54,393 nt of DNA from Bacilli bacterium. GTDB lineage: Bacteria; Bacillota_I; Bacilli_A; RF39; UBA660. Both the position numbers and the translations under genes were made by a program. Of this stretch, positions 8,170-11,509 are shown in pieces. The stretch covers positions 1 to 54,393 of the forward strand of contig JAUNMV010000005.1 in assembly GCA_030531695.1 (NCBI GenBank), given 5' to 3'. Every line of letters begins with the position of its first letter. Position 1 is the stretch's first letter. The notes beneath the pieces were generated by a model. That model ran no database searches and had not been told where the DNA came from. It saw nothing but the letters and a program-made list of their open reading frames with translations.

Positions 8170-10179
8170 TTAATTACATAAAGTCATTTCCACAACAATA
8201 TTACCATCAACATCCTTAAAAGCATTTTCAATGATAGATGTACTATTTTTCTTAATTAAGAATTCCATTTGACCATAATTAAGTTGAGAAAGTGGTTCGA
8301 TATAAGCACCATAATTAGCATCATTAGGAACTCGTATCTTTAACAAAACGTTGTCATTTTCAGATATAAAAGAGGAGGCACTAAATTCCAATAAAGAAGA
8401 ACTCATATATGATTTATCACTATAAGTTTTACCAATAAGAGATTTTAAATCACTAACATCGTCAAATTGAGAAGTAAGTGCATCTAACCCAACATTTCTA
8501 TAAGTTACAATCTCATGTTCTAACTTTCCAAATTTTTCTATTGCAGAATCTAAATTTGTAGAACCTTCAGATAATCCTGACCTCATCATATCATTCATTG
8601 TTGTTTTGCCATCAAAAGAGCCAAAATCCTTAGCATAAATCATAATAGAAGTTTTCTCTCTTTCTGTTAATTTTTCAATCCATCTATTTTGAATAGAATT
8701 TGAGTAATTATCTACTAAAGAATTATAAGTAGATAATTGATCTGCATTTAGATAAGATTTAGCCATAGAAATAGTGGCCTCATCGCCATGATATAAATCT
8801 CTCTTAATATTTTGATAATCAAACCAATCAATTTTACCTTTTTTCACTTGTTCTTGCATATTTCCAACTAAATAAAGGTTACTATCACCAAAATATTCTG
8901 CAACTTGATTATAATTATCAAAACCAGAAGGAATAGAACCTAATTGCTTTAAGGTTTTCTCATTTAGTAATCTTCTTGCAGATTTAGTATCAACATAAGC
9001 ACCAATGCCGCTGCCTACAGCTGCAAGCCCTAAAGAAAAAGCTAATTCTGTTCCTCCAAACTTAATTAAATCATTTAAACTTTCATCACCAATAGCATAA
9101 TTAATTCCATGTTTTGTAACAACAGCACCTGTATCCAATAAAGTATCAATCATAAAAAAATTCCTTGCAAAATTTTTTCCAAAAGATGTACTTAAATCTG
9201 AAGTAATTCGAGCATTATTAGCAACAGAAACACCTGATTTCAAAGCATTAATTCCATTATATATACCAGCGCCTAATTGCCCATACCCATAAAATTCTGC
9301 GGCTCCACCTACACCGCCAACTATAGCTTTACCAAATGACTTTTTGTAATTATAGTTTTCACCAAGATCTATATTAACACTTTGAGCATATTTTTCTTCC
9401 TCACTACCAACACCATAAATAGCACCAATAGCAACAGCAGCGGTTCCCCCACTTAAGACAGTTGCAGCCGTAGCCAAAGCAATTTTCGAAACAAATTCTG
9501 TGCCTACTTGAATACCTTCTGCAGCTGCACTATCATACTTCAAATTAGACTTTAAGTTAATAAATTTACCAATTGACGTATCCTCGTAAAAGGAACGATT
9601 ATTATCACCAACTATATCCTTACGAATAAAATTCATAGTAGAATTTTTAATATTTTCTGATACATCACGATTAAATAAAGATGTCCATCCACTAATAGAC
9701 ATTCCTCCAATGTATGAAACACCATCAATCACTGTTTCTCCAACTTTTAAAATACCATTTTCAACACTTTTTTTTGTAACAAATAAAGTTGCACCAGTTT
9801 GAACAAAAGCCTCACCTAAATCGTAAAAACCTTCTCCCCTAAATACAGAACTTATACCATTTCCCCAAGAACAGCAAGTATCTTTAATTGCATTAAATGT
9901 ACTGCTAAAAAAGCCCTCCTTTTTTTCAGACTCTTTTTCTACCATTGTTTCATTTATACGAGAATTAATTGCAATCATATTTTGAACTAAATGTATATTA
10001 TCTTTAATACACTTGATATAATCTTCAATAATAGCTATTAACTCTGACTCATTTTTAAAAGAATTAGGCATCTGGGTTCTTAATTGCGATAGTAAATCAC
10101 TATTGTCAGAAAAAAGATCTATAGACTCACTTAACTGACTATGTGCTTTATTAAATAATTCTATATTAAATTCAAACAT
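8170..10179 (-). CDS. Putative type VII-exported polymorphic toxin with C-terminal ADP-ribosyltransferase (VIP2/C3-like, R-S-E class)
   Basis: C-terminal ~175 aa: W...LTEREK.SI..Y, MN.MMR, LDSAIEK, TYRNV, YMSSSL, LLKIRVP, GAYIEPLS, YGQMEFLI. Helical N-terminus and Gly/Ala-rich hydrophobic middle segments. Confidence 0.85.
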   Translation of the reverse strand: MFEFNIELFNKAHSQLSESIDLFSDNSDLLSQLRTQMPNSFKNESELIAIIEDYIKCIKDNIHLVQNMIAINSRINETMVEKESEKKEGFFSSTFNAIKDTCCSWGNGISSVFRGEGFYDLGEAFVQTGATLFVTKKSVENGILKVGETVIDGVSYIGGMSISGWTSLFNRDVSENIKNSTMNFIRKDIVGDNNRSFYEDTSIGKFINLKSNLKYDSAAAEGIQVGTEFVSKIALATAATVLSGGTAAVAIGAIYGVGSEEEKYAQSVNIDLGENYNYKKSFGKAIVGGVGGAAEFYGYGQLGAGIYNGINALKSGVSVANNARITSDLSTSFGKNFARNFFMIDTLLDTGAVVTKHGINYAIGDESLNDLIKFGGTELAFSLGLAAVGSGIGAYVDTKSARRLLNEKTLKQLGSIPSGFDNYNQVAEYFGDSNLYLVGNMQEQVKKGKIDWFDYQNIKRDLYHGDEATISMAKSYLNADQLSTYNSLVDNYSNSIQNRWIEKLTEREKTSIMIYAKDFGSFDGKTTMNDMMRSGLSEGSTNLDSAIEKFGKLEHEIVTYRNVGLDALTSQFDDVSDLKSLIGKTYSDKSYMSSSLLEFSASSFISENDNVLLKIRVPNDANYGAYIEPLSQLNYGQMEFLIKKNSTSIIENAFKDVDGNIVVEMTLCN

Positions 10180-10186
10180 AAGTCAC

Positions 10187-10570
10187 CTATCTTTCAAGAC
10201 GCAAAGCCTCATTATATTTCTCTGTCAATTGATCTAATTTTTTTTCTAAAGAATAAACTTGATTATTAAAATCTTCTATATTATAAGAAATATTCTTTGA
10301 TAACATATCTATCACAGATAAATCTTTATTTAAATTATCATAATTAGATAATAATAAGCCATTATCTAACGTATTTCCATCACTGACATATCCACCATCT
10401 AAAAAAGCTAAGTATGCACCTTTTATACTATTATTTGTATCATCAATAATTTCACTAAATTTTTCTAACAAACTTAAATAATTAGCATATTGCTTGCTCT
10501 TATCTCTAATACTTTGTAATTCGGCTGAAACTTGATTAATCTGATTTTTATAAAAAGATGAATTTTCCAT
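10187..10570 (-). CDS. Small helical-hairpin protein, likely toxin secretion partner (Lap/WXG100-like)
   Basis: 127 aa, two long amphipathic helices around a GGYVSDG turn; between DUF4176 and the toxin with 1- and 7-bp gaps. Confidence 0.5.
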   Translation of the reverse strand: MENSSFYKNQINQVSAELQSIRDKSKQYANYLSLLEKFSEIIDDTNNSIKGAYLAFLDGGYVSDGNTLDNGLLLSNYDNLNKDLSVIDMLSKNISYNIEDFNNQVYSLEKKLDQLTEKYNEALRLER

Positions 10571-10571
10571 A

Positions 10572-10850
10572 TTATTGATTTTTTTTCGTTAATTTATCTA
10601 GTTTTTCTTTAAATTTTTTTTCTTCTTCATCAGAATAACCAAGGGAATAAATTTTTTCAATTTGATCATGATTAAATAATGCCACATTTTCTGAAGAAAC
10701 ATTTCCCTCTGGATATAAACATCCACAGTAATCAAACATTCCAGCATTTTCATTTTTCGTAACTATACAAAACCCCGTAATCATTAATCTTTTTTTACCA
10801 CCTTTAAGTAAAACAACAGTACCTAAAGGAAGATATTTTTTATTTTCCAT
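10572..10850 (-). CDS. DUF4176 family protein
   Basis: YLPLGTVVLLKGG.K.LMITG, FDYCGCLYPEG, LFNHDQIEKI...GYSDEEE. Confidence 0.9.
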   Translation of the reverse strand: MENKKYLPLGTVVLLKGGKKRLMITGFCIVTKNENAGMFDYCGCLYPEGNVSSENVALFNHDQIEKIYSLGYSDEEEKKFKEKLDKLTKKNQ

Positions 10851-10865
10851 ATAATCTCCTTATTT

Positions 10866-10890
10866 AAAAAGCGGTAATAAATACCGCTTT
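10866..10890 (-). terminator. Intrinsic terminator inside the toxin cassette, after the WXG100-like gene
   Basis: aaagcggta-ataaa-taccgcttt hairpin ending in UUUUU on the minus strand. Confidence 0.75.
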
Positions 10891-10897
10891 ATTACTT

Positions 10898-11509
10898 TTA
10901 TGATAATTGTTGAATATTACTTACTGCTATACCTAAATTATCTCTTGCTTCAGTTAAATATTTACTATAAGTATCAGCATTTTGACTAAATTCATTAAAT
11001 GCAGCTACAGCTGATTCTCTATCAGATCCTGCTGTCCAATTTTGTAATAACTCATCTTTAATAGAAGAAAAACTATTTTTAAAATTATCGTACTCAGAGC
11101 AAACTCCTTGAAGACTAGCATAATCACTAGCAGCAGCTGGGTCAACATAATACTCAGAAGTATCAGCACATTCTGCTAAAGCAGCTGCATTTGGAACATT
11201 TTTATTTAAAGTAGCTCCAACATTTCCGCCACCACCATTCATATTTCTAACTTCCTGAATAGCTACTATTCTATTACCTGCAGAAGCTGAAACAGTAATT
11301 GCATCAGTAACAATAGCTTCTAAAGCCTTATGAACAGCTATTAATTTATTAATATTGTTGCTTGCGTCGCTACCAACCCAATGAGCTTTTAAGTTGTTAA
11401 TAGTCTCTGCAAGACGATCAACTAATTCTCCTCCTGTTTCTGTTCCTAATCTATTTAGATCTTCACATTGTGAATATCCTAAATCCAAATTACTTACATT
11501 AATATCCAT
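10898..11509 (-). CDS. Tandem (double) WXG100-like protein
   Basis: Two ~90-aa helical hairpins with central HWVGSD (W44) and NWTAGSD (W158), joined by a GGGG linker; strong GGGAGG SD. Confidence 0.7.
   Translation of the reverse strand: MDINVSNLDLGYSQCEDLNRLGTETGGELVDRLAETINNLKAHWVGSDASNNINKLIAVHKALEAIVTDAITVSASAGNRIVAIQEVRNMNGGGGNVGATLNKNVPNAAALAECADTSEYYVDPAAASDYASLQGVCSEYDNFKNSFSSIKDELLQNWTAGSDRESAVAAFNEFSQNADTYSKYLTEARDNLGIAVSNIQQLS

Follow-up and report, generated by a model that had tools for sequence, protein, structure and literature searches.

The 54,393-nt contig JAUNMV010000005.1 of a Bacilli bacterium (assembly GCA_030531695.1; Bacillota_I, Bacilli_A, RF39, UBA660) was analysed at its full length and is referred to below as the window (contig C45). 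The assembly comprises 1.46 Mb in 84 contigs (contig GC ~26-29%) and is 80.85% complete with 5.57% contamination. Between positions 8170 and 11509, four co-oriented open reading frames (ORFs) lie on the minus strand, with successive gaps of 47, 1 and 7 nt in the ORF listing of the window. The first of them encodes a 203-aa protein with two predicted helical hairpins; the others encode a DUF4176 protein of 92 aa, a helical protein of 127 aa and a toxin of 669 aa that ends in an ADP-ribosyltransferase (ART) domain. A preliminary description of the contig had noted four tightly packed genes just upstream of parE, and its coordinates were found to be exact. The segment is likely an accessory island carrying one entire polymorphic toxin module that is ready for export by a type VIIb-like secretion system. 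Features were assigned as follows (coordinates, strand, feature, basis):

8134-8161, minus, terminator-like hairpin of 7 pairs with T-rich tail, after the toxin stop codon (hairpin scan)
8170-10179, minus, 669-aa toxin (C-terminal PF03496)
8221-8709, minus, toxin residues 491-653, ADP-ribosyltransferase domain (PF03496, PDB profile matches)
8950-9894, minus, toxin residues 96-410, Gly-rich hydrophobic helical middle domain (cluster matches, hydropathy)
9910-10179, minus, toxin residues 1-90, N-terminal helical hairpin, putative targeting domain (AlphaFold2 model, alignment, predicted interface)
10187-10570, minus, 127-aa helical-hairpin protein, predicted adaptor (positional homologs, complex prediction)
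10572-10850, minus, 92-aa small DUF4176 protein, putative toxin chaperone (PF13780)
10867-10889, minus, hairpin with 9-bp stem and 5-nt loop followed by Ts, between the 203-aa and DUF4176 genes (hairpin scan)
10898-11509, minus, 203-aa double-hairpin WXG100-like protein (ORF, AlphaFold2 model)
11539-11568, minus, promoter-like TTGACT-N18-TAAAAT, 30 nt upstream of the 203-aa gene (10/12 consensus matches)
11595-12404, plus, divergent 269-aa orphan ORF with a hydrophobic stretch at residues ~64-115 (ORF listing, hydropathy)

The toxin and its small partners

For domain assignment, the cassette proteins were scanned with Pfam and NCBIfam models, and the two agreed. Toxin residues 491-653 matched PF03496 (ADPrib_exo_Tox) with 65.5 bits (cut-off 23.4, E 5.3e-18) and the 92-aa protein matched DUF4176 (PF13780) with 100.8 bits (cut-off 25, E 4.4e-29), so that both assignments of the preliminary description held. 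Profile searches of the toxin tip against the PDB returned the Lmo0066 protein (8za7_B, E 1.6e-6), as well as Certhrax (1.1e-5) and C3 exoenzymes (~1e-3). The name Lmo0066 is that of the PDB entry only, and nothing relevant to this protein was found in the limited literature searched. The catalytic motifs are intact (R561, S593-S594-S595 and Q637-M-E639) and align with those of the Lmo0066 protein and Certhrax. By sequence the tip is an R / S-x-S / Q-x-E ADP-ribosyltransferase, which would be expected to be active. It shares the R, S-x-S and Q-x-E motifs with the C3, Certhrax and Lmo0066 enzymes of PF03496, but differs from them by low identity (the Lmo0066 match being the best PDB hit) and by fusion to a T7SS-type (type VII secretion system) front end. 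An essC-linked toxin of 1020 aa in a related locus (L055:6034-9096) combines ART and HD domains.

The whole toxin was modelled with AlphaFold2 (AF2) from a 47-row alignment. The model was all-helical, with predicted local distance difference test (pLDDT) values of 70-93 over residues ~10-300 and a mean of 64.9. At the N-terminus, helices 6-36 and 44-113 form a hairpin around the turn MPNSF (residues 37-41; MPNSFKN), and L-x-G and W-x-G are absent from this region, as had been described. A12 and P38 were invariant in 6 related toxin N-termini, with a turn consensus of P-[PN]-x-[FY]. The middle domain (residues 96-410) contains 14% glycine and hydrophobic stretches at 225-259 and 371-397; no Pfam, NCBIfam or PDB relative of it was found. 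Foldseek with the toxin model gave 0 of 153 PDB matches at E<=0.001 and was uninformative, the model being poor. Profiles of the toxin family and of the 203-aa family matched only designed coiled coils or noise in the PDB.

A word-indexed search with the toxin returned 18 proteins at E<=0.001 including the query, and the 16 strongest of the others span only its first 44-76%. In the alignment, homologs diverge after residue ~405. When residues 1-410 were searched with phmmer against 1.84 billion cluster representatives, 240 matched at E<=0.001, 187 at 1e-10 and 41 at 1e-30. Most of these span only toxin residues ~95-400, and lengths range from 230 to 2419 aa among the 150 listed. Variation of the C-terminal tips on the shared first ~405 residues, a point raised in the preliminary description, was observed: Pfam models identified DUF3626 (3), ART (2), TNT (2) and transglutaminase (2) tips among 57 representatives, with EndoU, DUF6782, IreB and MgtE_N once each, and a second set of 47 members contained ART in 5 and TNT in 3. 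WXG100 was not matched in the 57 representatives. By these comparisons the toxin is a member of a tip-swapping family with an undescribed, conserved front end of ~400 residues.

The 127-aa protein has no Pfam family and gave only coiled-coil noise, and a word-based homolog search returned the query alone. Relatives were collected by position in related loci (L011, L012 with two copies, L013 and genome G571); the family has the invariant turn motif GGY-x(2,3)-G-x-x-LD-x-G-x-L. For complex prediction, toxin residues 1-120 were combined with the 127-aa protein. Three runs scored 0.82, 0.82 and 0.81 and the best of 3 controls 0.19. Of solved complexes, 58 of 80 attain that mark, and of mismatched pairs 2 of 110, counts that are rough here, with our own alignments supplied. 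The runs share at least 91% of contacts at a partner pLDDT of at least 90, and the interface is formed by toxin residues 1-71 and partner residues 24-97, that is, both helices of both hairpins. The prediction supports binding of the 127-aa protein to the toxin N-terminal hairpin; part of the score may come from likeness to solved WXG100-type bundles. Sequence profiles of the helical components were unrelated in hhalign (toxin N-terminus versus 203-aa family, 1.7% probability; 127-aa versus 203-aa family, 0.3%; toxin N-terminus versus 127-aa family, 1.2%). A homolog of 148 aa precedes an essC-linked 626-aa protein with three LysM repeats (L012:8373-10253).

The closest solved relative of the 92-aa protein is the small DUF4176 protein in PDB 9dcs_A (E 4.3e-9). 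In its available part, PMC12478183 describes DUF4176 proteins as toxin-specific chaperones that are required for toxin stability and export and bind the disordered amphipathic middle region of LXG toxins or, more generally, helices of hydrophobic or amphipathic character in T7SSb toxins. There, 'large' DUF4176 genes are located between lap and toxin genes and 'small' ones are rarely found with LXG toxins; the authors speculate that the DUF4176-bound region is a membrane-translocation domain, and their discussion raises the entry of T7SS toxins into target cells as an open question. By analogy, the middle domain of the present toxin is likely the DUF4176 client and a putative membrane-translocation domain. 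DUF4176 was present in 10 of the 13 toxin-family loci among those mapped below. Small DUF4176 proteins encoded beside toxins with a conserved hydrophobic middle and cytoplasm-acting tips fit the chaperone model and would extend it to the small class, although small DUF4176 genes beside non-LXG toxins may already be visible in the gene-neighbourhood supplement of that study (including Fig. S7).

According to the same source, the membrane-depolarising toxin TelD of S. intermedius GC1825 is stabilised by MQE10_09270 (PDB 9DCS). This protein resembles the 92-aa protein in its small class and in the proposed shielding of hydrophobic helices. Its gene, however, follows the immunity gene and its client is the toxic domain itself (PMC12478183, available part), whereas here DUF4176 is encoded upstream of the toxin, in which the conserved middle domain is followed by a tip that is swapped between homologs. 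A second DUF4176 gene (120 aa) was found at G000:C16:77230-85656 (L041) between 860- and 573-aa ORFs without a Pfam family; three helical ORFs of 95-114 aa precede, and nothing there matched the toxin hidden Markov model (HMM). This locus is possibly a further effector island whose toxin belongs to another family.

For the 203-aa protein, the AF2 model had a pLDDT of 93.4 and a predicted TM-score (pTM) of 0.88. Helices 8-43, 47-90, 126-157 and 164-202 form two helix-turn-helix hairpins, which agrees with the WXG100-like fold proposed before, and because the pTM is high the hairpins probably pack into one bundle. The turns contain W44-V-G46, which fits W-x-G, and W158-T-A-G161 (W-x-x-G); both motifs are conserved in the family (19 members, all 202-213 aa), as is the loop of residues 91-125 containing NGGGG that joins the hairpins. 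The protein is not a ~100-residue, single-hairpin WXG100, since two hairpins reside in one chain. The WXG100 model matched 9 of the 19 family members at E<=0.01, and TIGR03930 scored 22.1 bits on the 203-aa protein (cut-off 44.85). When one half of the family was aligned to the other with hhalign, the probability was 1.1%, without sequence similarity, and the protein therefore resembles a fused heterodimer rather than a recent duplication. The term 'double WXG100' of the preliminary description is thus supported by the two modelled hairpins, but a duplication is not shown by sequence.

Compared with WXG100 proteins (EsxA-type homodimers and ESAT-6/CFP-10-type heterodimers), the 203-aa protein is alike in its hairpins with a Trp turn, in the predicted four-helix unit and in the position of its homologs beside essC in relatives. 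It is unlike them in carrying both hairpins in one chain with a ~35-residue loop and a second turn of W-x-x-G; moreover, its halves are dissimilar and only the second one matches the Pfam model, below threshold. Foldseek with the 203-aa model returned 0 of 716 PDB matches at E<=0.001 (ferritins and membrane transporters made up the top rows of this and the toxin search), and was uninformative because WXG100 dimers are stored as two chains. A tandem, fused or double WXG100 was not found described in the limited literature searched.

The 203-aa homolog lies directly 3' of essC in L011, L013, L054, L056, L057 and L058, and not so in this genome. Where toxin genes accompany it (L011, L012, L013), the 203-aa homolog is single, and toxins tend to have their own partners of 127-148 aa (L012, L011). 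We read the 203-aa protein as a general WXG100 component because it is a single copy and usually directly follows essC, and the 127-aa protein as a toxin-specific adaptor because each toxin tends to have a partner of its own. In L056 and L057 (G108:C15 and G268:C24), two paralogs of the 203-aa family of 236-366 aa each follow essC, with no toxin-family match. At G000:C10:10335-14000 (L042), two adjacent genes of canonical WXG100 size (39.1 and 31.6 bits, over cut-off), a third weaker WXG100 and ORFs of 325, 161 and 298 aa are found on a contig without essC.

Type VII machinery and the insertion

The genome was searched for the type VII ATPase with TIGR03928. Two EssC genes exceeded the cut-off of 778.4 (988.7 and 911.3 bits) on contigs C66 (1527 aa) and C8 (1543 aa); besides these, an FtsK-like match was obtained on C32, and none in the window. 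A type VII ATPase is thus encoded elsewhere in the genome, in line with the preliminary description. Each essC is followed by a conserved gene of 84-90 aa and several helical genes of ~70-170 aa (C66:16433-21723 and C8:12963-20034; L044 and L043). The small essC-adjacent family (83-107 aa across loci) has no Pfam or PDB match beyond designed coiled coils or noise.

For co-occurrence, 301 genomes of the order were scanned, which are kin, so that counts are not independent: EssC was found in 144, and the toxin and 203-aa families in 12 each (6 of the 203-aa matches being strong). All 12 toxin-positive genomes, this one included, carry EssC, and in 10 of the 11 toxin-positive relatives a toxin match lies on an essC contig, within ~3 kb. 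In addition, 18 loci were mapped with local HMMs (3 records of metagenome-assembled genomes, MAGs, and 15 further stretches). In L013 the order is essC - 203-aa homolog - DUF4176 - 127-aa homolog - toxin - 133-aa ORF. Two layouts recurred, namely small gene - essC - 203-aa homolog, and essC - small gene - DUF4176 - toxin (L046, L050, L051, L052, L055). In L013, L011 and the same-genus genome G571, as in the window, DUF4176 is followed by the helical protein and then by the toxin. Conserved co-occurrence, on which the earlier proposal depended, was therefore found in relatives.

In all three informative same-genus loci (L064, L065, L066), recD2 is directly followed by parE at a distance of 365-377 bp, and the downstream genes are syntenic. 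Here the two genes are 4.6 kb apart. From this comparison, the cassette together with the 269-aa ORF is a ~4.3-kb insertion (~8.1-12.4 kb) between recD2 and parE. The GC content of the inserted segment (0.21-0.34, window 8100-12410) is unremarkable relative to its flanks. Neither the 203-aa family nor the 269-aa ORF had a match in the 5 same-genus genomes (68%-95% complete), all of which carry EssC. In one of them, G571, which has contig breaks at both sides, a related cassette (L067, C3:61-3653) is located on a contig that begins 60 nt before DUF4176; the cassette encodes DUF4176 (92 aa), a 127-aa homolog, a 792-aa toxin whose C-terminal part differs from that of the window toxin, and a 179-aa ORF that is likely an immunity gene. 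An H-E-x-x-H string was seen by eye in an aligned homolog of the G571 toxin. Two low-depth metagenome contigs skip the cassette: in one, 8110 is joined to 11593, and in the other, 7989 is joined to 11529 with 3 letters inserted between them; because the flanking sides of these joints are ~20 letters, cassette-free variants are only weakly hinted at.

Secretion model and alternatives

In the model that we propose, the toxin consists of an N-terminal hairpin (~1-90), a Gly-rich hydrophobic middle (~96-410), a linker and the C-terminal ART domain. The 127-aa protein would pack on the N-terminal hairpin, and the resulting WXG100-like helical bundle would serve as the export signal. The small DUF4176 protein may shield the hydrophobic middle domain in the cytoplasm of the producer. 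The 203-aa protein would act as the single-chain equivalent of a WXG100 dimer that is co-secreted or generally required, EsxA-like, and not specific to the toxin. Export would be powered by an EssC ATPase whose gene is located elsewhere. After export, the middle domain may enter the target membrane and deliver the ART domain, which would ADP-ribosylate its target. Relative to the preliminary description, the T7SS effector module is supported in an adjusted form: the 203-aa protein looks general, the EssC proteins of this genome are candidates for serving the cassette, and no immunity gene follows the toxin.

Several observations weigh against this model. The toxin has no LXG match. The AF2 model of the toxin is poor past residue ~310. 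The WXG100 model (PF06013) matches the 203-aa protein only at residues 144-201 and below its cut-off (22.7 versus 27.3 bits), and no solved WXG100 structure was matched by sequence or fold. The linkage seen in the mapped loci (the toxin family in 13 of 18, and 11 of these 13 with EssC on the stretch as well) supports the model, but the loci were picked by cassette-family matches, with ranges framed to include known essC positions. Searches for EssB (YukC; PF10140), EsaA (TIGR03929) and EsaB (YukD; PF08817) gave 0 matches at E<=0.1 in the 80.85%-complete genome, and EssB was over cut-off in 0 of the 301 order-sample genomes; the apparatus is called atypical for these reasons and, by its gene content, looks pared down or very divergent. 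The cognate ATPase may be absent or encoded in the ~19% of the genome that was not assembled, and because of the 5.57% contamination the contigs could in principle stem from different organisms. No co-directional ORF of at least 20 aa exists between the toxin and parE, whereas relatives have an ORF of 111, 133, 179 or 224 aa directly after the toxin.

A gene of 415 or 442 aa near essC in two relatives (L013:10773-12101 and L011:763-2010) was considered as a stand-in for EssB and rejected; it has no hydrophobic segment and no homolog here.

No convincing counterpart in this genome was found for the small ORFs that come after the toxins of L055, L013 and L011. The producer may be protected because the target is absent from it (e.g. 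a host protein), because immunity is encoded elsewhere, or by the 269-aa ORF. The last is a guess: this ORF has no significant Pfam or NCBIfam family, a weak defence-model match (17.9 bits) and no informative Atlas neighbour.

Knowledge of T7SSb comes almost wholly from Staphylococcus, Bacillus and Streptococcus, where toxins are recognised by their LXG domain and have Lap partners. The cassette shares with such proteins a conserved front end, variable C-terminal tips, small helical partners and essC linkage. It resembles the LXG-Lap-Ltc modules of S. intermedius TelA and TelB (PMC12478183 and bioRxiv 10.1101/2023.07.21.550046, each available in part) in having small helical and DUF4176 genes upstream of a tip-swapping toxin whose front end serves targeting, whose middle is hydrophobic or amphipathic and whose enzymatic tip varies. 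It is unlike them in that the toxin has a front end of a ~90-residue hairpin without an LXG domain or L-x-G, the DUF4176 protein (92 aa) belongs to the small class rarely found with LXG toxins (PMC12478183, available part), one free helical partner and a fused double-hairpin protein stand in place of two Lap proteins, DUF4176 precedes the helical partner, and no immunity gene follows. To judge from gene order and domain models, the cassette works like an LXG-Lap-Ltc module yet is not recognised as one by the LXG family.

It is possible, though we consider it doubtful, that the front end is an LXG domain that has diverged very strongly and that the 127- and 203-aa proteins are divergent Lap factors, so that an ordinary LXG-Lap-Ltc cassette was missed by the profiles. 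The common logic of helical partners, DUF4176 and a variable-tip toxin (PMC12478183, available part) would fit this, as would the predicted hairpin-on-hairpin interface, which resembles both WXG100 and LXG-Lap packing. In a language-model search with the toxin, 21 unnamed clusters came first (0.90-0.93) and LXG clusters appeared at rank 14 (0.88) and rank 29 (0.86), scores below 0.9 being leads only. PF04740 (LXG), however, had no match in the toxin at E<=1, 0 in this genome, 0 in 57 family representatives and 0 in 10 locus toxins; LXG was not among the 25 families shown of 66 for 47 toxin-family members (E<=1). Nor was PF04740 found in 151 class-sample genomes (E<=1e-10) or 200 phylum-sample genomes (E<=1e-15). 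The hairpin covers ~90 residues against 202 positions of the LXG model, its turn reads P-[PN]-x-[FY] and not L-x-G, and the partners match neither DUF3130 nor WXG100 profiles.

Separate from the question of LXG ancestry is that of function in this strain. The cassette could be a recently acquired or stranded island whose cognate ATPase is absent, with a toxin that is not exported and genes that are silent, decaying or otherwise kept. We regard this as unlikely, and some of the evidence points towards it. The EssC proteins of this genome share 42% and 36% identity with the EssC encoded beside the 203-aa homologs of L011 and L013; between these last two the value is 66%. Neither EssC of this genome is orthologous to those, and the cognate EssC is uncertain for this reason. 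The cassette is the genome's only copy of the toxin, 127-aa and 203-aa families, the insertion is missing from 3/3 informative same-genus loci and no immunity gene follows the toxin. Against decay stand four intact, tightly spaced frames with ribosome-binding sites and an intact catalytic motif; moreover, EssC is kept in 5/5 same-genus genomes, a sibling cassette exists in G571 and, at 80.85% completeness, a third essC may be unassembled.

An intracellular abortive-infection or addiction system, with an ART that is active within the producing cell and neutralised by the small proteins, is very improbable: an island location, the missing downstream immunity gene and small upstream proteins that could be antitoxins would suit it, but every component family is repeatedly and tightly linked to essC, the tips are swapped on a conserved front end of 400 residues, DUF4176 proteins are known as T7SS chaperones, and the toxin and the 203-aa protein had no defence-model match, the others noise only.

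Under the preferred reading of an exported effector module, the cassette shows the logic of LXG modules built of unrecognised parts in an uncultured gut lineage. Because LXG models find nothing although EssC is common in the order, LXG-based surveys miss the effectors of this lineage. Three searchable families were defined: the 127-aa adaptor, the fused WXG100 of 203 aa, and the front end of the toxin together with its middle domain. The cassette also provides a testable link between small DUF4176 chaperones and this conserved hydrophobic domain, by which toxins may cross target membranes. The fused WXG100 could serve as a single-chain tool for studying EssC substrate recognition.

As a broader and tentative suggestion, short of probable, a small-genome gut lineage (related MAGs are labelled uncultured Bacilli or Erysipelotrichaceae) might run a pared-down T7SS of EssC plus one small conserved protein, in which EssB, EsaA and EsaB are not recognisable. 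Recognition would be independent of LXG and rely on a ~90-residue toxin hairpin with a P-x-x-F/Y turn and on a new family of adaptors that have GGY...LDxG at the turn; the EsxA dimer would be replaced by a double WXG100 in one chain, and small DUF4176 proteins would guard a widespread Gly-rich translocation domain (240 clusters). The ART variant without an immunity gene may then act on host rather than bacterial cells. On T7SS in Erysipelotrichaceae, nothing relevant was found in the limited literature searched.

Local signals and flanking genes

For regulatory signals, the region was scanned for promoter-like sites and hairpins and compared with shuffled sequence. The promoter proposed in the preliminary description at 11568-11539 is present as a site and is not above chance, because 43 such sites were found versus 33.8 +/- 5.6 in shuffles. 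A GGGAGG ribosome-binding site lies between it and the 203-aa gene, and AAGGAG precedes the ATG of the DUF4176 gene at 10850. The terminator proposed at 8134-8161 was recovered as a hairpin with a T tail, placed at 8142-8161 by the scan, one of 3 such hairpins in the region where 1.2 +/- 1.2 were expected. The hairpin at 10867-10889, which the scan assigned to the plus strand and which is read here on the minus strand, is possibly a partial terminator that damps read-through after a highly expressed first gene.

Matching sequencing runs (20 from 15 studies, no RNA run among those listed) were labelled gut or bovine gut and mostly contained small shares. Upstream of the cassette, the divergent 269-aa ORF and a 55-aa ORF are followed by recD2 (TIGR01448, 744 bits). 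The downstream neighbour is parE (TIGR01058, 950 bits, cut-off 899.95). Its mechanical ORF begins at TTG 8039, and the family model aligns only from residue 22; a TTGAAA-N17-TATAAT site lies at 8039-8011, near this mechanical start. The true parE start is probably the ATG near 7979.

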